Source: Escherichia coli (GTDB lineage Bacteria > Pseudomonadota > Gammaproteobacteria > Enterobacterales > Enterobacteriaceae). From it: 64,000 bases of DNA. Made by a program: the position numbers and the translations under genes. Below the pieces are notes generated by a model. That model did no database searches. It had not been told where the DNA came from and saw only the letters and a program-made list of their open reading frames with translations. Position 1 is the first letter of the stretch, and each line of letters begins with the position of its first letter. Location: assembly GCF_003334305.1 (NCBI RefSeq), contig NZ_QOWS01000004.1. One strand, 5' to 3'. Shown piece by piece: positions 8,402 to 50,124 of the stretch.

Positions 8402-10963
8402 ATGAGTGCAATAGAAAATTTCGACGCCCATACGCCCATGATGCAGCAGTATCTCAGGCTGAAAGCCCAGCATCCCGAGATCCTGCTGTTTTACCGGATG
8501 GGTGATTTTTATGAACTGTTTTATGACGACGCAAAACGCGCGTCGCAACTGCTGGATATTTCACTGACCAAACGCGGTGCTTCGGCGGGAGAGCCGATCC
8601 CGATGGCGGGGATTCCCTACCATGCGGTGGAAAACTATCTCGCCAAACTGGTGAATCAGGGAGAGTCCGTTGCCATCTGCGAACAAATTGGCGATCCGGC
8701 GACCAGCAAAGGTCCGGTTGAGCGCAAAGTTGTGCGTATCGTTACGCCAGGCACCATCAGCGATGAAGCCCTGTTACAGGAGCGTCAGGACAACCTGCTG
8801 GCGGCTATCTGGCAGGACAGCAAAGGTTTCGGCTACGCGACGCTGGATATCAGCTCCGGGCGTTTTCGCCTGAGCGAACCGGCCGACCGCGAAACGATGG
8901 CGGCAGAGCTGCAACGCACTAATCCGGCGGAACTGCTGTATGCAGAAGATTTCGCCGAGATGTCGCTGATTGAAGGCCGTCGCGGCCTGCGCCGTCGCCC
9001 GCTGTGGGAGTTTGAAATCGACACCGCGCGCCAGCAGTTGAATCTGCAATTTGGCACCCGCGATCTGGTCGGTTTTGGCGTCGAGAACGCGCCGCGCGGA
9101 CTTTGTGCTGCCGGTTGTCTGTTGCAGTATGCGAAAGATACCCAACGCACGACCCTGCCGCATATTCGTTCTATCACCATGGAACGTGAGCAGGACAGCA
9201 TCATTATGGATGCCGCGACACGTCGTAACCTGGAAATTACTCAGAACCTGGCGGGCGGTGCGGAAAATACGCTGGCTTCTGTGCTCGACTGCACCGTCAC
9301 GCCGATGGGTAGTCGTATGCTGAAACGCTGGCTGCATATGCCAGTGCGCGATACCCGCGTGTTGCTTGAGCGCCAGCAAACTATTGGCGCATTGCAGGAT
9401 TTCACCGCCGAGTTGCAGCCGGTACTGCGTCAGGTCGGCGACCTGGAACGTATTCTGGCACGTCTGGCTTTACGAACTGCTCGCCCACGCGATCTGGCCC
9501 GTATGCGCCACGCTTTCCAGCAACTGCCGGAGCTGCGTGCGCAGTTAGAAACTGTCGATAGTGCACCGGTACAGGCGCTACGTGAGAAGATGGGCGAGTT
9601 TGCCGAGCTGCGCGATCTGCTGGAGCGAGCAATCATCGACACACCGCCGGTGCTGGTACGCGACGGTGGTGTTATCGCATCGGGCTATAACGAAGAGCTG
9701 GATGAGTGGCGCGCGCTGGCTGACGGCGCGACCGATTATCTGGAGCGTCTGGAAGTCCGCGAGCGTGAACGTACCGGCCTGGACACGCTGAAAGTTGGCT
9801 TTAATGCGGTGCACGGCTACTACATTCAAATCAGCCGTGGGCAAAGCCATCTGGCACCCATCAACTACATGCGTCGCCAGACGCTGAAAAACGCCGAGCG
9901 CTACATCATTCCAGAGCTAAAAGAGTACGAAGATAAAGTTCTCACCTCAAAAGGCAAAGCACTGGCACTGGAAAAACAGCTTTATGAAGAGCTGTTCGAC
10001 CTGCTGTTGCCGCATCTGGAAGCGTTGCAACAGAGCGCGAGCGCGCTGGCGGAACTCGACGTGCTGGTTAACCTGGCGGAACGGGCCTATACCCTGAACT
10101 ACACCTGCCCGACCTTCATTGATAAACCGGGCATTCGCATTACCGAAGGTCGCCATCCGGTAGTTGAACAAGTACTGAATGAGCCATTTATCGCTAACCC
10201 GCTGAATCTGTCGCCGCAGCGCCGTATGTTGATTATTACCGGCCCGAACATGGGCGGTAAAAGTACCTATATGCGCCAGACCGCACTGATTGCGCTGATG
10301 GCCTACATCGGCAGCTATGTACCGGCACAAAAAGTCGAGATTGGACCTATCGATCGCATCTTTACCCGCGTAGGCGCGGCAGATGACCTGGCTTCCGGGC
10401 GCTCAACCTTTATGGTGGAGATGACTGAAACCGCCAATATTTTACATAACGCCACCGAATACAGTCTGGTGTTAATGGATGAGATCGGGCGTGGAACGTC
10501 CACCTACGATGGTCTGTCGCTGGCGTGGGCGTGCGCAGAAAATCTGGCGAATAAGATTAAGGCATTGACGCTGTTTGCCACCCACTATTTCGAGCTGACC
10601 CAGCTACCGGAGAAAATGGAAGGCGTCGCCAACGTACATCTCGATGCGCTGGAGCACGGCGACACTATCGCCTTTATGCACAGCGTGCAGGACGGCGCGG
10701 CGAGCAAAAGCTACGGTCTGGCGGTTGCTGCTCTGGCGGGCGTACCGAAAGAGGTTATTAAGCGCGCACGGCAAAAACTGCGTGAGCTGGAAAGCATTTC
10801 GCCGAACGCCGCCGCTACGCAAGTGGATGGTACGCAAATGTCTTTGCTGTCCGTACCAGAAGAAACTTCGCCTGCGGTCGAGGCACTGGAAAACCTGGAC
10901 CCGGATTCACTGACTCCGCGTCAGGCGCTGGAGTGGATTTATCGCTTGAAGAGTCTGGTGTAA
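8402..10963 (+). CDS. mutS: DNA mismatch repair protein MutS
   Basis: 853 aa with Walker [10 protein letters not shown]. Confidence 0.97.
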
Positions 10964-10969
10964 TAAAAA

Positions 10970-10996
10970 TTCCCGATAGTCTTTTGCTATCGGGAA
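10970..10996 (+). terminator. Candidate mutS terminator hairpin
   Basis: ttcccgatag-tcttttg-ctatcgggaa 10-bp stem; weak T tract afterwards. Confidence 0.4.
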
Positions 10997-11068
10997 TATT
11001 AACGACAACTGACGAATCAAATAAAAATACCCTGTATAATAGGAAAGCTTATTTTACAGGGTAAAACC

Positions 11069-20227: not shown

Positions 20228-20635
20228 ATGGCGTTACGAAATAAAGCGTTCCATCAGTTACGACAGCTTTTTCAGCAGCACACGGCTCGCTGGCAGCACG
20301 AGTTACCTGACCTGACCAAACCACAGTACGCGGTGATGCGCGCCATTGCTGATAAACCTGGTATCGAACAGGTGGCACTGATAGAAGCAGCTGTCAGCAC
20401 CAAAGCAACGTTAGCAGAAATGTTGGCAAGAATGGAAAATCGTGGCTTAGTCAGACGTGAACATGACCCCGCTGATAAGCGGCGACGCTTTGTCTGGTTG
20501 ACTGCCGAAGGCGAAAAGATACTTGCTGCGGCGATACCCATTGGTGACAGCGTGGATGAGGAATTTTTGGGGCGTTTGAGTGGAGAAGAGCAGGAGCTGT
20601 TTATGCAGCTGGTGCGCAAGATGATGAACGCATAG
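20228..20635 (+). CDS. MarR/SlyA-family transcriptional regulator
   Basis: 135 aa; divergent from the decarboxylase operon. Confidence 0.85.
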   Translation: MALRNKAFHQLRQLFQQHTARWQHELPDLTKPQYAVMRAIADKPGIEQVALIEAAVSTKATLAEMLARMENRGLVRREHDPADKRRRFVWLTAEGEKILAAAIPIGDSVDEEFLGRLSGEEQELFMQLVRKMMNA

Positions 20636-20646
20636 GGGGCAAATTT

Positions 20647-20682
20647 CCGGATGCGACGCTATCGCGTCTTATCCAGACTACA
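20647..20682. repeat. REP-like palindromic element
   Basis: ccggatgcgacgctatcgcgtcttatccagactaca resembles the REP sequences at 42680 and 49183. Confidence 0.5.
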
Positions 20683-20710
20683 AATACACCGACTCACCAA
20701 CCGAAAGAAA

Positions 20711-20740
20711 AAAGGCCAGCCTCGCTTGAGACTGGCCTTT
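20711..20740. terminator. rpoS rho-independent terminator (bidirectional hairpin)
   Basis: aaaggccag-N12-ctggccttt; on the minus strand the hairpin is followed by TTTTTTCTTT. Confidence 0.65.
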
Positions 20741-20755
20741 CTGACAGATGCTTAC

Positions 20756-38515: not shown

Positions 38516-38612
38516 ACGCATCCTCTCGTAAAAAAGACCATCCCAGGTCGGTTGTCCATCTTTCCATCCTTTTCGGTGTATCAACTATTCAGAGAGTCCT
38601 GTCGCAGACATC

Positions 38613-41312
38613 TCAACCAACCTTGCCAATCAATCCTTCCGTAGCCGAATACCCGCAACTTTCGTCATCGTTGACTAAAATCACGTTTGCCATCTCCGGA
38701 TCTTGTCGCTGTTCAATGCACCACAGCCTGAACGCCTCTCCCTCCAGTAAAGAAAACTCATCCCGATGTTTTTTCCACCAGCTTCGGCGCACTCTGACAA
38801 CGCTCATTTCCCATGCGTGAGCACCGGTGGCATAAGGCTTCACCACACCGTCAATACAGGTAGCCAGCCACAGGGAAACAGACTCCTCAGCCAGACGTGT
38901 CGACAGTTTTTCCGGGAGGTAATCGTTGATATTGGCGGCATAGCCGGGCCTGAAGTTCAGCACAAACTTTTTAGCCATTGCGCGATCGCAGTAATATTTG
39001 CCCACTTGCTCCTGCTCGCTGCGGGCAAATCCTTCCGGCATTACCACGTCCTCACCGTAGACGGATTCAATAAGAAGCCGGGCTGCGTATGGCATCTGAA
39101 TAGCACCTTGCTCACGCAGCACACGCTGCGTCAGCCAGATTCGCCCATGATCGGGATAGACAAATGCACTGTTACGCATGGCACTGCCAAACCATTCGTC
39201 GCCAGGAGAGTCGTCCCAGACGGGAGCCAGAATCAGCAATTCAGGGGGGGAACGCTCGTCCTTTCCGTCACGCTTTAACTGACCATTAATATCGCGGATA
39301 TGCCGCTGTAATCGTCCTGCTCGCTGAATCAGCAAATCAACAGGGGCCAGGTCGGAGATCATTTCGTCCAGGTCAATATCCACGCTTTGCTCAATTACTT
39401 GTGTACAAACAATGACTTGCGACGCTCTCTGTAAACTACAATATTTACCAAAGCGTGCCAGTGTCTCCGTTTCAATTCGCTGGCGATCGCTAAAAGCAAA
39501 GCGGCTATGAAAAAGTGAAAGGCTGGAAGCAGGAATGACGCCGCGGGCAAGCAGCTGACGATGAACCTTAATAGCGTCATCGACAGAATTCCGGATCCAG
39601 GCGATGCATTTCCCCTGACTTACCGCCGATTCGATACGCGCAATACACTCTTGTTCACTATGAAGCCAACCCACGCTGACGCTACGCTCAACGTCTTTGC
39701 GCGTCGCTACCCGGTGTGAGTTCACATCGGATTTCGTGACATGCGTCAGCCAGGGGTAATCATCCTTTTCCAGGAACGGAGCTTCTTGCAGGCCCTCTGT
39801 ACCCCGCGCAAAGGCAGCGACGAGTTTGTCGCGCTGCTGTTGAGATAACGTGGCAGAAAGCAAAATAACGCTGTTTCCGCCACGCGCCTGCCGCTCGATC
39901 AACCCTTCAAGAATGCACGACATGTAAGCGTCACAGGCGTGGATCTCATCAGCCAGCAGGATTTTGTTACTCAGCCCCAGAAGCCGCAGATTATTATGTT
40001 TGAACGGCATCACCGCCATCATCGCCTGATCCAGCGTGCCGACGCCAATTTCAGCCAGCAACGCCTTCTTGTTACTGTCGGCAAACCAGGCCGCACATCC
40101 CTGACTGAACGTTTGTTCATCCGGTTCTTCTGACCCGACTAAATCACCAGACCAGAGTGATTCATTAAAGCGGTCCATTAATGTGCGGGCACTATGTGCC
40201 AGCACCAGGCTGGGGCGGGATTCTGGCGAATAGAAAGCAAGCCAGGTTTTGACCAGCCGATCGTACATGGCATTGGCCGTTGCCATTGTTGGCAGACCAA
40301 AAAACAGCCCCTGAGCTTTCCCCGCAGCTATCAACCTGTGCGCCAGGATAAGCGCCGCTTCTGTTTTACCTGCGCCAGTCACATCTTCCAGAATAAATAA
40401 CTGCGGTCCTTGCTGGCTGATATCCAGATCCAGCACCTTTTGCTGTAACGGTGTCGGATTCTCAATAAAAGGAAACAGCGTATTAATTCCGTTGAAAGGC
40501 GCGACTTTTGCTTTTAGAGGAAAGACGGTTAAGGCGTTTTGAGCCTGAATTAAAGTTTTCTGCCAGTAACCTTTAATATCCATTGGGTGTGCGACGCGTG
40601 GAAAAAATCGCGTTGACGAACCCGTCCAGTCTGCGAGCACGACGGTTGCAGAGATATACCAGGAAAGGTGTTTTATAAGTTCAATGCCCTCATCATCATC
40701 CCAGAATGCGGGGATCTCTATGAGCGGAAACAGTGGTTTGATTTCAAGGAGAAAATCTCGTGCTGCAGCTTTGTCTTCAGGCAGAAAATTATCCAATTCA
40801 TCCATACGATCAGGGGGCCGACCATGATGCCCTGTCGTCACGGGCATCCACATTTCTATCACTCGCCTAAGTTTGCGCGGAGAGAGCGAAGATGAAGGAA
40901 GTAACTCCTGACATTCACTTAAATAATGATTCCACAACCAGTAGCCCAGCGTTGAATGAGAGATTTTTTCGTAATTTTTTCTGGCACCTTCCTGAATCTT
41001 GAGTTCAGGGGGCAGGTAAAGTTGTTGAAAAGAGCGGGCAAATTTTCCAATATCGTGCCAGCACAGCAACCAGGCGAAAAATTGAGCCGCCTGTTCCTTG
41101 TCAGAAATCCCTAATTGACGAAAATAATCAGCCAGCCCGAAGCAATTTCTTTTAACCATTAAATAGCCCATCGCGGCTACATCCAGCGAATGCCAGCAAA
41201 GAAGGTGATAGTCGTCGCCCCCGTCTTTCTCGCCGCGTCGGGTTTTTCCCCAGAAATCAAAAAAAGTCACAATATTTTTATCCTTCAGTAAACTTAAAGG
41301 ATATTTACGCAT
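38613..41312 (-). CDS. cas3: CRISPR-associated helicase-nuclease Cas3 (HD nuclease + DEAD/DEAH helicase)
   Basis: 899 aa; N-terminal HD motif (HDIGKF) and helicase motif GAGKTEAAL. Confidence 0.93.
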   Translation of the reverse strand: MRKYPLSLLKDKNIVTFFDFWGKTRRGEKDGGDDYHLLCWHSLDVAAMGYLMVKRNCFGLADYFRQLGISDKEQAAQFFAWLLCWHDIGKFARSFQQLYLPPELKIQEGARKNYEKISHSTLGYWLWNHYLSECQELLPSSSLSPRKLRRVIEMWMPVTTGHHGRPPDRMDELDNFLPEDKAAARDFLLEIKPLFPLIEIPAFWDDDEGIELIKHLSWYISATVVLADWTGSSTRFFPRVAHPMDIKGYWQKTLIQAQNALTVFPLKAKVAPFNGINTLFPFIENPTPLQQKVLDLDISQQGPQLFILEDVTGAGKTEAALILAHRLIAAGKAQGLFFGLPTMATANAMYDRLVKTWLAFYSPESRPSLVLAHSARTLMDRFNESLWSGDLVGSEEPDEQTFSQGCAAWFADSNKKALLAEIGVGTLDQAMMAVMPFKHNNLRLLGLSNKILLADEIHACDAYMSCILEGLIERQARGGNSVILLSATLSQQQRDKLVAAFARGTEGLQEAPFLEKDDYPWLTHVTKSDVNSHRVATRKDVERSVSVGWLHSEQECIARIESAVSQGKCIAWIRNSVDDAIKVHRQLLARGVIPASSLSLFHSRFAFSDRQRIETETLARFGKYCSLQRASQVIVCTQVIEQSVDIDLDEMISDLAPVDLLIQRAGRLQRHIRDINGQLKRDGKDERSPPELLILAPVWDDSPGDEWFGSAMRNSAFVYPDHGRIWLTQRVLREQGAIQMPYAARLLIESVYGEDVVMPEGFARSEQEQVGKYYCDRAMAKKFVLNFRPGYAANINDYLPEKLSTRLAEESVSLWLATCIDGVVKPYATGAHAWEMSVVRVRRSWWKKHRDEFSLLEGEAFRLWCIEQRQDPEMANVILVNDDESCGYSATEGLIGKVG

Positions 41313-41507: not shown

Positions 41508-41660
41508 TACTTCTTCGATTCGTAAGCGAGAACTGCCTTAAACTCCATACCACGTTCTCTGATACTCAACTCACACAACGAGTCGCCTACCATCAGCGTG
41601 AATCCCAGTACTGTAAAACACAGCACTATGATTGCCACAAGGGCATATTTTGTCAGCATG
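41508..41660 (-). CDS. hokX: Hok-family type I toxin (50 aa), not present in the ORF track
   Basis: Manual translation of the minus strand from ATG 41660-41658, preceded by GGGAGG: [50 protein letters not shown], stop TAG. Hok/Gef signature; the hokX symbol is from memory of the K-12 cysH-cas3 gap. Confidence 0.85.
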
Positions 41661-41923
41661 TCTTGCCTCCCTGCAAAGAAGAGACTAACATTCGAATTGT
41701 TTGGGTTCGAACGTAAGCCTCAGGTTGATAGAAATATCGCCTGGGGCTTTTGTCCATCTGGAACCTCGCGAATGCTTAACGCCAGACAGCCTCAAGCACC
41801 CGACGCCATTCTATACCTGATAATTCTTCCAGCGGCGTTCACGTTTAAAATCAGGAATACTGCTCGCAAAATAAAAACGCCCCCATCATTTCTGACAGAG
41901 GCGTTTAATTTATCCGGCAATAT

Positions 41924-42658
41924 TTACCCTTCGTGCAATCCACATTCCCTTTTTAAGCCAAAGAAACGTGTTTCTTCTTCCGACATGCCAGGTTCCCATT
42001 TACGGGTTGTATGGGTATCACCGACCGATAAATATCCTTCATCCCATAATGGGTGATATTTCAGGCCATGTTTTTGCAGGTACTGATAAATAGTTCGGTT
42101 ATCCCAGTCGATAATCGGCAGCACTTTAAATACGCCACGCTGAATTGCCAGCACCGGTAAATTGGCGCGACTGCCGGATTGTTCACGGCGCAGGCCAGCA
42201 AACCAGGTTTGCGCGTTAAGTTCTTTCAGAGCCCGGTTCATCGGTTCGACTTTGTTGATGTCATTGTACTTTTCAATGCCTTCAACGCCCTGTTCCCACA
42301 GTTTGCCGTAGCGTGCTTCCTGCCAGGCGGCGCTTTCGGTAGCGCGGTACACTTTCAGGTTGAGCTTGAGTTTGTCCGTTAACTCGTCAATAAAGCGGTA
42401 GGTTTCCGGGAACAGATAGCCGGTGTCGGTGAGGATCACCGGAATATCCGGGTGAATCTGATTCACCAGATGCAGGCTCACCGCCGCCTGAATGCCAAAG
42501 CTGGAAGAAAGTACATATTCACCGGGCAGATTATCCAGCGCCCAGGCAACGCGGCCTTCAGCGTCCAGTTTTTCCAGTTCGGCGTTAGTTTCTGCCAGCG
42601 CCAGAATGCGATCTACCTTCGGCAGTTCGTTCAGGGCGTTTAGATCGAGTTTGGACAT
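41924..42658 (-). CDS. cysH: Phosphoadenosine phosphosulfate reductase
   Basis: Start chosen at [13 protein letters not shown] (244 aa) inside the 295-aa track ORF, which extends upstream across a REP element. Confidence 0.93.
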
Positions 42659-42679
42659 AGATTCCTCACTGTTTGCCTT

Positions 42680-42716
42680 GCCTGATGCGACGCTCACGCG
42701 TCTTATCAGGCCTACA
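42680..42716. repeat. REP element in cysI-cysH intergenic region
   Basis: gcctgatgcgacgctcacgcgtcttatcaggcctaca; an almost identical copy is at 49183. Confidence 0.7.
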
Positions 42717-42731
42717 AGACCGGGCTGATGG

Positions 42732-44444
42732 TTAATCCCACAAATCGCGCGCCGGATCGAGCACCGGGCGAATGATGCCCGCACGCACCGTAAAGTCGCC
42801 GAAGCCTTCACCCGCTTCGCGCTCTTTCGCCCAGCGCCCTATCAGTTCATCAAGCGACGCCAGGATTTCCGGCTCGGTGATGTTTTCTTTATACATCCGT
42901 GGGATACGTGTCCCAATGCGGTTGCCGCCAAGATGCAGGTTGTAGCGACCCGGCGCTTTACCCACCAGGCCCACTTCCGCCAGCATCGCGCGACCACAAC
43001 CGTTCGGGCAGCCTGTTACACGCATCACGATATGCTCATCGCTGACACCATGTTTCGCCATTAAATTATCGATGTTGTCGATAAAAGACGGCAGGAAACG
43101 CTCTGCTTCCGCCATCGCCAGCGGGCAAGTCGGGAACGAGACGCAGGCCATCGAGTTTTCACGCTGCGGCGTGACGGCATTCATTAACCCGCTCTCTTTG
43201 GCGATCTTCTCGATCTTCGCTTTCTCGCTTTCCGGTACACCGGCGATGATCAGATTCTGGTTCGCCGTAATGCGGAAATCGCCTTTGTGGATCTTCGCGA
43301 TCTCCAGCAGGCCGGTTTTCAGCGGACGCCCCGGATAATCAAGGATGCGACCATTTTCGATAAACAGCGTCAGGTGCCAGTTATCATCAATGCCCTTAAC
43401 CCAGCCAATACGATCGCCTCGTCCGGTGAACTCATATGGACGGATCGGTTCAAATTTGATCCCCGCGCGACGCTCCACTTCCGCTTTAAACGTCTCAACC
43501 CCCACGCGCTCCAGCGTGTATTTGGTTTTGGCATTTTTACGATCGGTTCGGTTACCCCAGTCACGCTGAGTTGTCACGACGGCTTCGGCCACCGCCAGCG
43601 TATGCTCCAGCGGCAGATAGCCAAACTCGCTCGCCGTGCGGGCGTAGGTTTTCTTGTTGCCGTGTTCGATAGAAAGCCCACCGCCCACCAGCAGGTTGAA
43701 GCCTACCAGCTTGCCGTTTTCGGCGATTGCCACGAAGTTCATGTCGTTGGCATGCAGATCGATATCGTTCTGCGGCGGGATCACTACCGTGGTTTTGAAC
43801 TTACGCGGCAGGTAGGTCTGACCAAGGATCGGTTCTTCATCAGTAGTGGCGACTTTTTCCTGGTCGAGCCAGATCTCCGCATACGCGCGGGTACGAGGCA
43901 ACAGATGCTCAGAAATCTTCTTCGCCCACTCGTACGCTTCCGCGTGCAGCTGCGACTCGTAAGGGTTCGAGGTGCAGAGTACGTTACGGTTCATGTCGTT
44001 AGCTGTCGCCAGCGCATCAAGACCGACCGAGTGCAGCATCTGGTGCACCGGTTTGACGTTCTTTTTCAGAATGCCGTGGAACTGAAACGTCTGGCGGTTG
44101 GTCAGGCGAATGCTGCCATAGATGGTGTTTTCACCGGCAAATTTATCGATCGCTTGCCACTGTTTGGTGGTGATCACGCCACCCGGCAGACGACAGCGCA
44201 ACAGCATCGCATGGCGCGGCTCCAGCTTCTGTTCAGCACGTTCGGCGCGGATGTCGCGGTCATCCTGCTGATACATGCCGTGGAAGCGGATCAGCAGGAA
44301 GTTATCGCCCTTAAAGCCGCCGGTCAGACCGTCGTTTAAATCTTCCGCAATGGTGCCGCGCAGGTAGTTGCTTTCAAGCTTCATGCGCTCGGCGTCTGTC
44401 AGTTTACCTTCGACCACTAAAGGCCCTGGATGTTTTTCGCTCAT
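42732..44444 (-). CDS. cysI: Sulfite reductase hemoprotein beta subunit
   Basis: 570 aa. Confidence 0.96.
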
Positions 44445-46243
44445 TAGTAGACATCTCGCTGATAACGGCGCTCTACGCGCAGCTCACTTAAAAATTCATC
44501 CGCCGCTTCGGTGTCCATGCCACCAAATTCGGCAATCACTTCCAGAAGTGCCTGCTCAACGTCTTTCGCCATGCGATTAGCGTCACCGCAGACATAAATA
44601 TGGGCACCGTCATTGATCCAGCGCCACAGCTCCGCGCCCTGTTCGCGCAGTTTGTCTTGTACGTAAACTTTTTCTTTTTGGTCGCGCGACCAGGCGAGAT
44701 CGATCCGCGTCAGCACACCCTCTTTGACGTAGCGCTGCCACTCCACCTGGTAGAGGAAATCTTCCGTAAAGTGCGGGTTGCCAAAGAACAGCCAGTTTTT
44801 ACCCGGTGCTTCGTCGGCAGCACGTTGCTGCATAAAGGCGCGGAACGGCGCGATGCCGGTGCCTGGGCCAATCATAATCACCGGGGTTTCCGGGTTAGCG
44901 GGCAGGCGGAAGTTATCGTTATGTTCGATAAATACGCGGAGTTCGCCCTCTTCTTCCACGCGGTCCGCGAGGAAGCTGGAGGCACCACCGGCACGGGCGC
45001 GGCCTTCCACGTCGTAACGCACCACACCAACGGTGACGTGTACTTCGTTCTCGACTTCCGCCTGCGAGGAGGCGATGGAATACAGACGCGGCGTCAGCGG
45101 GCGCAGCAGATTAATTAGCGCTTCGGCATCAAGCTGTGCCGGGGAGAAACGCACCATGTCAACAATCGGCGTCGTCGCGGCGTAATGCTGTAACTTCGCT
45201 TTATCGCCCACCAGCGGCAGCAGTGTTTCACTGCGGGTAAGCGTGGCGTAATTCTCAACAATGTTGGCGGTGTTGACGGTCAGTTCGAAGTGCCACTGTA
45301 GCGCTTCGTTCAGAGGCAACGTTTTGCCCTCGACGGTGACAGGTTCATCGCCTGTCAGCCACAGCAGTTCGACAAGTTCTTTCACCAGTGCCGGATCGTT
45401 CTGATACCAGACGCCCAGCGCGTCACCCGGCTGGTAACGCAGGCCCGAGTCACCTAAGTCAATTTCGATATGGCGAACGTCTTTTTCAGAGTTACGCCCG
45501 GTAATTTTCTGGTTAACAGAGAGGCTAGCCACCAGTGGCGCGTCTTTGCTGTACGGGCTGGTGTGGATTTCATTTACCGCGCCAGTAGCGACGGATTGCG
45601 AAGGTGCCGCGACAGGCGCACGCGATTTAAGCGCATCAACCACGCGGGCGCGCCACTCGCTGGCAGCAGCCTGGTATTCAACATCGGCATCGACACGGTC
45701 GAGCAGGCGTTCACCGCCCAGTTCCGCCAGCTTGCTGTCGAAATCTTTCCCGGACTGGCAGAAAAATTCATAAGAGCTATCGCCGAGGCTAAACACGGCA
45801 AACGCGGTGTTTTCCAGCTTTGGCGCTTTTTTGGAGAACAGGAACTTATGCAGCGCGACGGCTTCTTCCGGCGGTTCCCCTTCCCCTTGCGTTGACGTCA
45901 CCACGATAAGCAGTTTTTCGCTGGCGATTTGTTTGAATTTATAGTCGCCCGCGTTCACCAGCTTAACGTTCAGTTTTGCCGTCAATAAATCATCGCGTAA
46001 TGCTTCAGCAACCCGGCGCGCATTGCCGGTTTGCGAAGCAGAGATAATAGTTATACCCGGCATTTCTGCGGCTGGCGCTGGCGTCGCTGCAAGCGCAGCA
46101 GGCTGCTGATTGAGCACGCCCCAGAAATAGCCAGAAACCCAGGCAAGCTGGGTGGGAGTTAAATCGGTCGTGGCCGCCTGAAGGCGTGCCAGTTGCTCCG
46201 GGTTCAACGGAAGCAACGCGGAAGGTGGGACCTGTGTCGTCAT
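44444..46243 (-). CDS. cysJ: Sulfite reductase flavoprotein alpha subunit
   Basis: 599 aa; flavodoxin-like and FAD/NADPH-binding domains. Confidence 0.96.
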
Positions 46244-46558
46244 GCGTCGTTATGTTCCAGTAAGCAAAGCTGTTTCTGCGCCCTGTCAGCGCCCATAAAA
46301 CAGAAGAGAAGGTAAGGTTAACGGGGCAAATGGTGTGGATTAAAGACGGGATAGCGATAACTAATAACCAAATCGACTAACCTGTTTTAGCAATAGTCTT
46401 TAACAACAAAATAGATTAACCAACCCAATGAAAAACAAATGAATTTAGCCAATCATTAAGATAAATCAGCGATTTTGCGCAACAAAGTCGTTTTAGATAA
46501 TGCGAAAAAACAGCCTTTCCGGTACTCTACGGCGGTTTTATCGTCCTGTAGAGAAATT

Positions 46559-46924
46559 ATGATGTCCACCACGTTATTTAAAGATTTCACCTTCGAAGCC
46601 GCTCACCGCTTACCACACGTCCCGGAAGGGCATAAATGTGGTCGCCTGCACGGGCATTCCTTTATGGTGCGACTGGAAATTACCGGGGAAGTCGATCCGC
46701 ATACGGGCTGGATTATCGATTTCGCTGAACTAAAAGCGGCGTTTAAACCAACCTACGAGCGCCTCGATCACCATTATCTCAATGATATTCCAGGTCTGGA
46801 AAACCCAACCAGCGAGGTTTTAGCAAAATGGATTTGGGATCAGGTTAAACCCGTTGTGCCGCTGTTAAGTGCGGTGATGGTAAAAGAAACCTGTACCGCA
46901 GGTTGTATCTATCGCGGCGAATGA
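46559..46924 (+). CDS. queD: 6-carboxy-5,6,7,8-tetrahydropterin synthase QueD
   Basis: Start chosen at [18 protein letters not shown] (121 aa) inside the 149-aa track ORF. Confidence 0.9.
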
Positions 46925-47001
46925 TAAGAGTGTGTCGGCGGTCAATTTCCCTTAAGTAACGCTATGTTAGGGTGTTGTGTTCTGGATATCTGGGGCATGA
47001 C

Positions 47002-48273
47002 ATGGAAGACGACTGCGACATTATTATTATTGGTGCCGGTATTGCAGGCACCGCTTGCGCGTTACGCTGCGCACGAGCGGGTTTATCCGTTTTGTTACTG
47101 GAACGCGCTGAAATCCCCGGCAGCAAAAATCTTTCCGGCGGGCGGTTATATACCCATGCACTCGCGGAACTCCTCCCGCAATTTCATCTGACCGCGCCTC
47201 TTGAACGACGCATCACTCACGAAAGCCTTTCCCTGTTAACGCCCGATGGCGTAACGACGTTTTCCAGCTTACAGCCCGGCGGTGAATCCTGGAGTGTATT
47301 ACGTGCACGGTTCGATCCGTGGCTGGTTGCCGAAGCCGAAAAAGAAGGTGTCGAATGCATCCCCGGAGCGACGGTGGATGCACTGTATGAAGAAAACGGC
47401 AGGGTGTGTGGTGTCATTTGTGGTGACGATATTCTCCGCGCCCGTTATGTGGTGCTGGCAGAAGGTGCCAACAGCGTCCTGGCTGAACGTCACGGATTAG
47501 TGACTCGTCCTGCTGGCGAAGCGATGGCGTTGGGGATCAAAGAAGTGCTGTCGCTGGAAACATCCGCTATTGAAGAACGTTTTCATCTGGAGAATAACGA
47601 AGGCGCAGCGTTGCTGTTCAGCGGCAGGATCTGTGATGACTTACCCGGCGGCGCATTTCTTTATACTAATCAACAAACGCTCTCGTTAGGGATTGTTTGC
47701 CCGCTCTCTTCCCTTACGCAAAGTCGTGTTCCGGCAAGCGAGCTGCTGACTCGCTTTAAAGCGCATCCGGCAGTGCGCCCGCTTATCAAAAACACGGAAT
47801 CACTGGAGTATGGTGCGCATCTGGTGCCAGAAGGTGGCTTGCACAGTATGCCGGTGCAATACGCCGGTAACGGCTGGCTGCTGGTGGGCGATGCGTTGCG
47901 CAGTTGCGTCAATACCGGAATTTCCGTGCGCGGCATGGATATGGCGCTGACTGGCGCGCAGGCGGCGGCACAAACGCTGATAAGCGCCTGCCAGCACCGC
48001 GAGCCGCAAAATCTGTTTGCGCTTTATCATCACAACGTAGAGCGCAGCCTGCTATGGGATGTTCTACAACGTTATCAGCATGTTCCGGCGCTTTTGCAAC
48101 GCCCTGGCTGGTATCGGGCGTGGCCTGCGTTAATGCAGGATATTTCCCGCGATTTATGGGATCAGGGTGATAAACCTGTTCCACCGCTGCGCCAGTTATT
48201 CTGGCGTCATTTACGTCGTCATGGCCTGTGGCATCTGGCGGGCGATGTTATCAGGAGTCTGCGATGTCTGTAG
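47002..48273 (+). CDS. ygcN: FixC-like FAD-dependent oxidoreductase (ETF:quinone oxidoreductase family)
   Basis: Start chosen at MEDDCDIIIIGAGIAGTA (423 aa), giving the FAD-binding GxGxxG motif at the N-terminus. Confidence 0.85.
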   Translation: MEDDCDIIIIGAGIAGTACALRCARAGLSVLLLERAEIPGSKNLSGGRLYTHALAELLPQFHLTAPLERRITHESLSLLTPDGVTTFSSLQPGGESWSVLRARFDPWLVAEAEKEGVECIPGATVDALYEENGRVCGVICGDDILRARYVVLAEGANSVLAERHGLVTRPAGEAMALGIKEVLSLETSAIEERFHLENNEGAALLFSGRICDDLPGGAFLYTNQQTLSLGIVCPLSSLTQSRVPASELLTRFKAHPAVRPLIKNTESLEYGAHLVPEGGLHSMPVQYAGNGWLLVGDALRSCVNTGISVRGMDMALTGAQAAAQTLISACQHREPQNLFALYHHNVERSLLWDVLQRYQHVPALLQRPGWYRAWPALMQDISRDLWDQGDKPVPPLRQLFWRHLRRHGLWHLAGDVIRSLRCL

Positions 48274-48524
48274 CCCATAATCTCTGGCGCGTTGCTGATG
48301 CGCCGCACATTGTTCCGGCTGACTCCGTTGAGCGTCAGATGGTACAACGGTTGATTAACGCCTGTCCGGCAGGTCTTTTTTCGCTCACACCGGAAGGTGA
48401 CTTACGCGTTGATTATCACGGCTGCCTGGAGTGTGGCACCTGCCGTTTGCTGTGCGACGAATCCACACTACAACAGTGGCGCTATCCGCCTTCCGGATTC
48501 GGCATCACCTACCGCTTTGGATAA
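48264..48524 (+). CDS. ygcO: FixX-like ferredoxin
   Basis: Start chosen at MSVAHNLWRV (86 aa); C-terminal CxxCxxC motif. Confidence 0.8.
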   Translation: MSVAHNLWRVADAPHIVPADSVERQMVQRLINACPAGLFSLTPEGDLRVDYHGCLECGTCRLLCDESTLQQWRYPPSGFGITYRFG

Positions 48525-48540
48525 ATAATAAGGATAATTT

Positions 48541-49116
48541 ATGCCCCTCTTACACCTGCTCCGCCAGAATCCGGTGATTGCTGCCGTTAAAGATAATGCC
48601 AGCCTGCAACTGGCAATCGACTCTGAATGCCAGTTTATTTCCGTGTTGTACGGCAATATCTGCACCATCAGTAATATCGTTAAAAAGATTAAGAACGCCG
48701 GGAAATATGCTTTTATTCATGTTGATTTGCTGGAAGGCGCGTCAAATAAAGAAGTCGTGATTCAGTTTTTGAAACTGGTGACCGAGGCGGACGGCATTAT
48801 CAGTACCAAAGCCTCAATGTTGAAAGCGGCAAGAGCGGAAGGTTTTTTCTGTATTCATCGCCTGTTTATTGTTGATTCAATTTCGTTTCACAACATTGAT
48901 AAGCAAGTTGCGCAATCGAATCCGGATTGTATTGAGATCCTGCCAGGCTGTATGCCCAAAGTGCTGGGCTGGGTGACAGAGAAAATCCGCCAACCGCTGA
49001 TTGCCGGTGGGCTGGTGTGCGATGAAGAAGATGCGCGTAATGCGATTAACGCGGGTGTCGTGGCGCTTTCCACCACGAATACCGGGGTCTGGACGTTAGC
49101 GAAAAAATTACTTTGA
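48541..49116 (+). CDS. ygcP: GlpP-like glycerol-3-phosphate-responsive antiterminator family protein
   Basis: 191 aa. Confidence 0.8.
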   Translation: MPLLHLLRQNPVIAAVKDNASLQLAIDSECQFISVLYGNICTISNIVKKIKNAGKYAFIHVDLLEGASNKEVVIQFLKLVTEADGIISTKASMLKAARAEGFFCIHRLFIVDSISFHNIDKQVAQSNPDCIEILPGCMPKVLGWVTEKIRQPLIAGGLVCDEEDARNAINAGVVALSTTNTGVWTLAKKLL

Positions 49117-49151
49117 CGGGATAATCGTAACCAATTGAATTTGGTTTGATT

Positions 49152-49220
49152 TGTAGGCCGCACGCCACATCCGACATTCAGCGCCTGATGCGACGCTTGA
49201 CGCGTCTTATCAGGCCTACA
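49152..49220. repeat. REP/BIME-like cluster between convergent ygcP and ygcQ
   Basis: tgtaggccgcacgccacatccg... followed by gcctgatgcgacgcttgacgcgtcttatcaggcctaca. Confidence 0.7.
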
Positions 49221-49263
49221 AGTCCCCAGGCCAGAACCGTAGGCAGGATCATCCGGCAACACG

Positions 49264-50124
49264 TTATTGGCAATCTGCGTGAATGTTTGTCACCAGTGCC
49301 TCCAGCACCACTTTCCAGTCATCAACCACGCCAACATCTGCCTGTGAAAATACCGCAGCGCTGGCGTCATGATTAATCGCCACCACAAACTTGCTATTGC
49401 GTACGCCCGCCATTAACGCTGCTGCGCCAGAAGCGCCAACAACAATACACACCTCAGGTGCCAGCAGATGTCCGGAAATACCAATCACTTTTTCAGCATC
49501 AACGCCACCGTTCATCACTCGCGCCCGACTGTAGCCCACTTCGGCTCCCAGCTTTTCTGCCAGCATAGCGATTTCCTGGTTATCTGCCTCTCCGCCCTGC
49601 CCCACCACCAGCACCCGTCTGGCCTCAGCTAATGGGTCGCGAGTAACATTTTTCAGATCCTCTGTGCTAACCAGCCAGTCGGGAAGCGCACCCGGGACAA
49701 TGTTCAGTTGTTGCATTCCAGAGGGCAACGTGGCGTTTTTCGCTGCTCCCGCCTGACGCGCCAGGGAAAGGCATAGCGGGCGTTTTTCTGTTTGCAGCGT
49801 CGCCGTTAGCGCATTTCCCCAGTGGGATTTGCGCACGCTTACGGTTGGAATATCTAACGAAGTCACCTGGCAGATGCTTGCACCATGTAAACGCCAGGCC
49901 AGCCGGGTCGACAGTTCATCGCCAAACGTTCCCGGCGGAAAGAGAACAACGTCCGCAGGCGTTCGCTGCCACTGTTCCACCAACGCATCCAGCACCTGTT
50001 CCGCCACTACAGGCTGAGGTTCAATCTGCCAGTGCGCCAGGGTACAACCGCTGAAATCCTGCGCCGCCAGCCAGCTTGCTATTGCGGCATTCTCCTGATT
50101 TATTGTCACAATTGCGATATTCAT
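49264..50124 (-). CDS. ygcQ: Electron transfer flavoprotein alpha subunit (FixB-like)
   Basis: Start chosen at MNIAIVTINQ (286 aa) inside the 297-aa track ORF. Confidence 0.85.
   Translation of the reverse strand: MNIAIVTINQENAAIASWLAAQDFSGCTLAHWQIEPQPVVAEQVLDALVEQWQRTPADVVLFPPGTFGDELSTRLAWRLHGASICQVTSLDIPTVSVRKSHWGNALTATLQTEKRPLCLSLARQAGAAKNATLPSGMQQLNIVPGALPDWLVSTEDLKNVTRDPLAEARRVLVVGQGGEADNQEIAMLAEKLGAEVGYSRARVMNGGVDAEKVIGISGHLLAPEVCIVVGASGAAALMAGVRNSKFVVAINHDASAAVFSQADVGVVDDWKVVLEALVTNIHADCQ

Follow-up and report, generated by a model that had tools for sequence, protein, structure and literature searches.

Repetitive extragenic palindromic (REP) elements, also called palindromic units (PU), and the bacterial interspersed mosaic elements (BIMEs) have been described since the early 1980s. 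Each E. coli genome contains several hundred copies of the REP, which are bound and cut by a domesticated transposase, RayT (also TnpA_REP). The E. coli REP/PU family reportedly goes back to the work of Higgins in 1982 and of Stern and of Gilson in 1984. The stretch of DNA analysed here, referred to as the window, comprises 64,000 nt of an Escherichia coli genome (contig NZ_QOWS01000004.1 of assembly GCF_003334305.1) and contains three such elements, one between cysI and cysH (site 1), one between ygcP and ygcQ (site 2) and one beside a MarR-family gene (site 3). All three are, with near certainty, members of the E. coli REP family. Sites 1 and 2 belong to the z1 class, site 2 being the centre of a y-z1-y BIME with internally deleted y units, while site 3 is a diverged hybrid of the z1 and y classes. 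A first-pass annotation of the window, which described these sequences as REP/BIME elements, was correct, and what it found is already known: these are ordinary REP/BIME elements, which add nothing new on the family. The explanation favoured overall, which combines the REP identity with a mode of action derived from the family, is held with high confidence.

The REP is defined as a stem-loop of 35–40 nt with a conserved GTAG located 5' of the stem (PMC3479197; PMC3333891), and a mismatch or bulge in the stem is required for RayT binding (PMC3479197). The class names used here (z1 etc.) are those of PMC3333891. The hairpin hinders 3'-to-5' exonucleases and thereby stabilises the upstream mRNA (PMC3479197). 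Related elements, the REPINs and RAYTs of Pseudomonas fluorescens and other species, are likewise short GTAG-tagged palindromes, often arranged as inverted pairs and tied to a single-copy tyrosine transposase. In contrast to these, sites 1 and 3 each comprise one unit with no inverted partner, and rayT lies outside the window; in E. coli K-12 the rayT gene is flanked on both sides by BIMEs.

Each of the three window units is 36–37 nt long and strictly intergenic, and consists of the GTAG head, a 7-bp outer stem, an AA/GC bulge, a 5-bp inner stem and a loop of 4–5 nt. In every copy the AA and the GC that separate the outer from the inner stem are unpaired. All three full units have their GTAG head on the minus strand; in the two decayed y units of site 2 it lies on the plus strand. 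The motif quoted in the first-pass annotation is found at all three of its sites, and the REP/BIME identity is borne out by the GTAG head, the imperfect hairpin with its bulge, the z1 sequence, the intergenic location, the y-z1-y arrangement at site 2 and the high copy number.

The first-pass annotation had headed the three copies as near-identical and described the third as a related copy; near-identity holds for sites 1 and 2 but not for site 3. The stems of sites 1 and 2 are identical and only the loop differs, by one substitution and one indel (GTGA versus GTCAA on the GTAG strand). Site 3, when aligned with site 1, differs at 7 of 36 positions and is identical at 29, and therefore is a related copy rather than a near-identical one. 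Neither site 1 nor site 2 departs from the E. coli z1 class: loop aside, neither differs in sequence from the z1 units that K-12 carries at malE-malF, pgi-yjbE and lamB-malM, and site 2 matches the K-12 yjbB-pepE unit at all 37 of 37 positions. Site 3 does depart from the class, and its alignment with 22 K-12 units reveals a z1-like inner stem combined with a y-like outer stem.

A covariance model was built from 25 REP units, the 22 from K-12 and the three window copies, so that the latter are part of its training set. Across these aligned units 94.7% of the stem cells are paired, as compared with 21–39% in controls with slid partners. Three stem pairs switch between G-C and U-A, or between A-U and G-C, from the y to the z1 class; these amount to essentially one class-level difference per pair and not to many independent events.

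A degenerate core of 20 positions, GATGCGNCGC-N1-12-GCGNCTTATC, has exactly three matches in the window and none in any of 100 dinucleotide-preserving shuffles of it, which excludes a chance palindrome. A regular expression derived from the published family pattern recovers the same three copies as the covariance model. When the window was scanned with the covariance model with filters off, no further REP was found beyond the three full units and the decayed y units. The Rfam scan of the whole window at gathering thresholds, in which the REP family was not included, returned the sok RNA as its sole hit.

The motif is repeated throughout E. coli, as the genome-wide search proposed in the first-pass annotation demonstrates, so that the refuting condition named there, a motif absent from the rest of the genome, does not apply. 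Each of 5426 complete E. coli genomes has 33 or more matches to the 38-mer, with counting capped at 40 per record. In a 290-kb sample of K-12, taken at six positions, the strict core has 21 matches, all of them intergenic when checked against the gene tables, including those at malE-malF, aceA-aceK, lamB-malM and both flanks of rayT. A looser regular expression applied to the same sample yields 32 units, of which 14 are y, 13 z1, 2 z2 and 3 unclassed. This corresponds to a density of ~110 REP units per Mb, or ~510 per genome, an extrapolation that is rough because the sample is small, covers the rayT and mal regions and varies between 0 and 12 units per 50 kb. An earlier census, as cited in PMC12306157, gives 496 REPs.

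Table 1. REP units of the window and the genes and intergenic regions around them (gene coordinates and annotation transferred from strain E2865 and K-12; a dot marks a feature without strand)
Feature	Position	Strand	Description
Site 1, z1-class REP in the cysI-cysH spacer	42680-42715	-	GTAGGCCTGATAAGACGCGTGAGCGTCGCATCAGGC on the GTAG strand; 57.4 bits
Site 2, z1-class REP at the centre of the ygcP-ygcQ BIME	49183-49219	-	GTAGGCCTGATAAGACGCGTCAAGCGTCGCATCAGGC on the GTAG strand; 56 bits
Site 3, diverged REP unit	20646-20681	-	GTAGTCTGGATAAGACGCGATAGCGTCGCATCCGGA on the GTAG strand; 50.9 bits
cysI-cysH intercistronic spacer, 73 nt	42659-42731	-	Stop codon, 16 nt, 36-nt REP, 21 nt with GAGGA Shine-Dalgarno sequence, then ATG
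cysH coding sequence, 244 aa	41924-42658	-	Start ATG at 42656-42658, behind the GAGGA Shine-Dalgarno sequence
cysI coding sequence	42732-44444	-	Transferred annotation
Mechanical open reading frame, GTG start, 295 aa	41924-42811	-	Crosses the REP and extends 80 nt into cysI
ygcP-ygcQ convergent intergenic region, 147 nt	49117-49263	.	Holds the y'-z1-y'' BIME; no intrinsic-terminator-like site
Left decayed y-type unit	49153-49176	+	GTAGGCCGCACGCCACATCCGACA; 11 internal bases (GATAAGGCGTT) deleted; 8.7 bits, E about 5
Right decayed y-type unit	49239-49258	+	GTAGGCAGGATCATCCGGCA; ~14 internal bases deleted; 21.8 bits, E 0.005
MarR-family gene	20228-20635	+	Stop codon TAG
rpoS intrinsic terminator	20709-20742	-	15-pair stem followed by a T-run

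The BIMEs at malE-malF and aceA-aceK are close described counterparts of site 1. As in these operons, the REP is located between two cistrons of one operon, the GTAG head of the z1 unit is on the mRNA-sense strand and no T-run is present. Site 1 differs from them in being a single z1 unit without y partners. The RNA folding suggested in the first-pass annotation gives -21.9 kcal/mol for site 1, with a z-score of -5.35 and none of 200 shuffles equally stable; sites 1 and 2 each fold at about -21 to -22 kcal/mol, with z-scores of about -5.4 to -5.8. Scans for terminators and promoters detected neither a T-run nor a sigma-70-like site between the site 1 REP and cysH, which indicates that the REP is read through within the cysJIH mRNA. 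A terminator-like site of the operon is found downstream of cysH, at 41906-41875.

In the proposed mode of action the REP would be co-transcribed in the cysJIH mRNA and fold into a hairpin of about -22 kcal/mol, which would impede 3'-to-5' exonucleases, and the part of the message with cysJ and cysI would consequently be longer-lived than the part with cysH, in the way described for malE-malF. By analogy with such systems, the most likely role of site 1 would be that of a stable mRNA hairpin shielding the cysJI message, a fixed neutral insertion being equally possible. That the protection has a measurable effect is proposed tentatively, at slightly less than an even chance.

A different role, in which the REP occludes the ribosome-binding site of cysH, is rejected on the predicted folding. 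In a 171-nt context, the unpaired probabilities across the cysH Shine-Dalgarno sequence and AUG are 0.76/0.77/0.16/0.22/0.31 with the REP and 0.75/0.75/0.17/0.23/0.32 after its deletion in silico, and the predicted accessibility thus stays the same. Folding of the 73-nt spacer by itself had suggested that the Shine-Dalgarno sequence pairs weakly with the bases that directly follow the stop codon of cysI.

The first-pass annotation had disfavoured a longer cysH start, on the grounds that the extended reading frame (GTG start, 295 aa) runs through the REP, and the comparison of homologues agrees with it. The CysH proteins from 80 species align from residue 1 of the 244-aa CysH, while the spacers upstream of cysH are of unrelated sequence across species and 12–234 nt long. 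The longer frame is therefore ruled out as a mechanical artefact. For the annotation of the window the outcome is of modest value: it confirms the short cysH start, explains the 73-nt gap in cysJIH and flags the decayed BIME between ygcP and ygcQ. No paper linking cysI or cysH with a REP was found in the library searched, and the RepRanger supplements do not contain these genes. REP-like sequences between cysI and cysH were reportedly mentioned by Ostrowski et al. in 1989.

The site 1 REP is present in 5420 of the 5426 E. coli genomes. The rayT gene is present in only 3575 of them, being absent from about a third, and the REP therefore persists without the transposase. In K-12 the cysI-cysH unit (L002 28335-28371) carries a one-base insertion in the stem, GATAAGAACGCG, because of which it escapes the strict REP pattern. 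Among seven aligned E. coli sequences of site 1 the outer stem is invariant, and the inner stem has three substitutions, all of them C-to-T on the mRNA-sense strand and all giving G.U wobbles; their carriers are E. coli strains APEC E16002, AREA_505 and A10 (L088, L089, L090). The preservation of pairing by this pattern is suggestive of a constraint at the RNA level.

Clusters of three units are found at the same junction in close relatives, arranged as z2-y-z1 in E. albertii (L010) and as z1-y-z1 in a divergent ‘E. coli’ lineage (L008). The cysH-side unit of these clusters and the two flanks match the single unit of E. coli, from which it follows that the single unit is probably either the product of a collapse of a three-unit cluster or the form from which the cluster expanded, as judged by this sequence match. 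The three-unit form was found in none of the 5426 E. coli genomes. Six of the genomes labelled E. coli have instead a cysI-cysH spacer of 136 nt with z2 and y units (e.g. N96, L092 331-466), which resembles the spacer of Pseudocitrobacter vendiensis (L009).

The junction was also compared across Enterobacteriaceae, with one representative from each of 78 species. The cysI-cysH spacer has a median length of 97 nt (range 12–234 nt) and exceeds 20 nt in 69 of the 78 species, nearly all of which have a palindromic repeat or a strong hairpin in it. GTAG/CTAC-tagged palindromes, that is REPs of several species-specific classes, are present in 42 of the 78, palindromes of the CCCTCTCCC/GGGAGAGGG type in 16 and other inserts, mostly strong hairpins, in 11, while the remaining 9 have a bare spacer of 12–20 nt without a hairpin. 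Covariance scores of at least 50 bits, corresponding to E. coli-type units, are confined to the cysI-cysH loci of Escherichia, with the related genera reaching 30–42 bits.

At least 8 of the 16 CCCTCTCCC/GGGAGAGGG-type spacers fit the published consensus of the BoxC/PIT/TMECO repeats (PMC4666352). These triplex-motif repeats are intergenic, G+C-rich and palindromic, as REPs are, and take their place between cysI and cysH in other genera, including in Pseudocitrobacter faecalis, Kluyvera georgiana, Buttiauxella and Cedecea davisae. They nevertheless form an unrelated family with the pattern CCCTCNCCC-N3-6-GGGNGAGGG-N3-GGGNGAGGG and no GTAG head, and none of them is found at the three window sites. 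Spacers of the BoxC/PIT/TMECO type were noted at loci L013 (5949-5969), L021, L022, L072, L075, L080, L081 and L083.

The presence of a structured repeat between cysI and cysH in most of the Enterobacteriaceae examined is a mildly interesting point; such a repeat might set the output of sulfite reductase relative to that of PAPS reductase. It is rather unlikely, although conceivable, that the junction is a convergent landing site at which selection favours some stable intercistronic structure. If the repeats were captured repeatedly and independently, as opposed to one old insertion that gene conversion has reshaped, the CysJI:CysH ratio would be set by the hairpin as a tuned device.

The main rival to a protective role is that the REPs are neutral leftovers of a selfish repeat mobilised by RayT, which became fixed in tolerant intergenic DNA with nothing removing them and which have no host function at the three sites. 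This is a serious contender, though judged to fall short of even odds. Several observations weigh in its favour and against a protective function. Fixation in E. coli is equally expected of a neutral insertion without an excision route. The C-to-T pattern of site 1 comprises three sites, with a chance probability of about 1 in 8, and the same pattern is produced by transcription-associated deamination of the non-template strand. The 9 species with a 12–20-nt junction manage without a hairpin, which means that the hairpin is dispensable there, and the in silico deletion of the REP leaves the predicted accessibility of the cysH start unchanged. Both y units at site 2 have internal deletions, which argues against strong selection on the whole BIME, while site 3 is diverged and, together with its flanks, lies in a strain-variable segment present in 2383 of the 5426 genomes.

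Neutrality is less easily reconciled with the invariant outer stem in the seven E. coli sequences and with inner-stem changes that maintain the pairing in RNA. The spacers longer than 20 nt in 69 of the 78 species, with at least two unrelated named repeat families among them, also speak against it, particularly as a REP is found at roughly 6% of the junctions in the K-12 sample (18 among ~300 annotated features) versus 69/78 species here, a figure that may be inflated through shared ancestry and gene conversion.

At site 2, the genes ygcP (plus strand, ending at 49116) and ygcQ (minus strand, ending at 49264) converge on the BIME. When their 147-nt spacer is aligned with intact BIMEs of K-12, it displays the y-z1-y layout with alternating orientation that it shares with aceA-aceK, gmhA-yafJ, malE-malF and lamB-malM. 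It differs from the malE-malF and aceA-aceK BIMEs in the internal deletions of its y units, and the linkers are 6 and 19 nt long. The alternation of y and z REPs with linkers that characterizes a BIME is found at site 2 only, sites 1 and 3 being single units. The first-pass annotation had noted one extra inverted REP-like unit here. A y-type unit indeed exists, although it starts at 49153 rather than at 49152 and lacks 11 internal bases, and the third unit, on the ygcQ side, had been overlooked. The left y unit is not significant alone by the covariance model and is recognisable solely through alignment to the intact K-12 BIMEs; the right one reaches significance by itself. The ygcP-ygcQ region is present in full in 4813 of the 5426 genomes. 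The left flank of this BIME (49125-49152, AACCAATTGAATTTGGTTTGATTT, starting AACCAATTGAATTTGG) has a similar counterpart to the left of the nlpE-yaeF BIME in K-12 (AACATTTTGAATTTGCACGTTTTTT, L003 16030-16054), and this resemblance may reflect a BIME flanking motif.

REP/BIME elements have been reported to interact with DNA gyrase, IHF or DNA polymerase I (PMC3479197), and the window units might accordingly serve as binding sites for these proteins and organise local supercoiling. In BIME-1 the z1 and y units are separated by a conserved long linker L which carries IHF sites, and in BIME-2 short linkers join y to z2 units (PMC3333891). Site 2, which has z1 and not z2 and whose y units are decayed, appears to fit neither of these layouts in its intact form, and sites 1 and 3 each lack both a partner unit and a linker. 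Such an action at the DNA level is highly improbable for the window.

As regards mRNA protection, the central hairpin of site 2 would serve as a 3'-end cap for the two convergent transcripts, ygcNOP and ygcQRS..., between which there is no intrinsic terminator. The same lack of any other terminator-like structure between ygcP and ygcQ, and the ability of REPs to cause transcription termination according to the literature (PMC3479197), are in line with a role as terminators or attenuators, which would end the convergent transcripts at site 2 and reduce the read-through into cysH at site 1. This role is unlikely. All of the window REP hairpins lack the T-run that an intrinsic terminator would have after its stem; the scan, which did find the nearby terminators of cysH and rpoS, detected no intrinsic terminator at any window REP. 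The termination considered in the first-pass annotation alongside mRNA stability is thus unsupported as far as the intrinsic type is concerned. Furthermore, no promoter-like site was found between the REP and the start of cysH, so that strong termination at site 1 would deprive sulfate assimilation of an essential step.

Site 3 is located between the MarR-family gene and the rpoS terminator, and is beyond that terminator on the rpoS transcript. Its hairpin is weaker than those of the other two sites, with a centroid energy of -14.5 kcal/mol; it could cap the MarR-family transcript and might slow terminating ribosomes. The segment that carries it, beside rpoS, is absent from K-12.

The stalling of ribosomes at a stop-proximal REP, with a tmRNA-dependent mechanism, was reportedly described by Liang, Rudd and Deutscher in 2015. 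The window REPs could act in this manner as translational down-regulators, the hairpin stalling the terminating ribosome and causing tmRNA-dependent loss of the upstream protein. For this, fewer than 16 nt must separate the REP from the preceding stop codon (Liang et al. 2015, as cited in PMC12306157). The site 3 hairpin begins 13 nt after the MarR-family TAG, within this distance, and at site 2 the right decayed unit lies 5 nt after the ygcQ stop codon. Site 1 is beyond the limit, with its GTAG 16 nt and its first paired base 20 nt after the cysI stop codon, although the measuring convention of the original paper may differ. Since the ygcQ-side unit has also lost its inner stem and the hairpin of site 3 is the weaker one, stop-proximal regulation appears quite improbable for these elements.

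The gene order of the window is the same as in strains E2865 and K-12: the MarR-family gene, rpoS, the type I-E CRISPR-cas system, hok/sok, the minus-strand genes cysH-cysI-cysJ, the plus-strand genes queD-ygcN-ygcO-ygcP and, again on the minus strand, ygcQ-ygcR-ygcS. The segments around sites 1 and 2 are 100% identical to those of E2865 and of many other strains. The sok antitoxin RNA (41644-41801, minus strand; Rfam RF01794, 113 bits) is located just downstream of cysH and adjoins a Hok/Gef family coding sequence in E2865.

Between positions 20560 and 42400 the window exceeds strain E2865 by 243 nt, which may result from a differing number of CRISPR spacers. Two CRISPR arrays with the type I-E repeat CGGTTTATCCCCGCTGGCGCGGGGAACAC and a period of 61 nt are present, at 31897-32669 (~13 repeats) and 58358-58947 (~10 repeats), and short degenerate CRISPR repeats are found upstream of the second array, at 57769-57903. 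The cas3 gene (window positions about 38600-41300; L001 4215-6914) is annotated in E2865 as a pseudogene with an internal stop. An inverted repeat at 10946-11020 has 34-nt arms that are 74% complementary and 7 nt apart.

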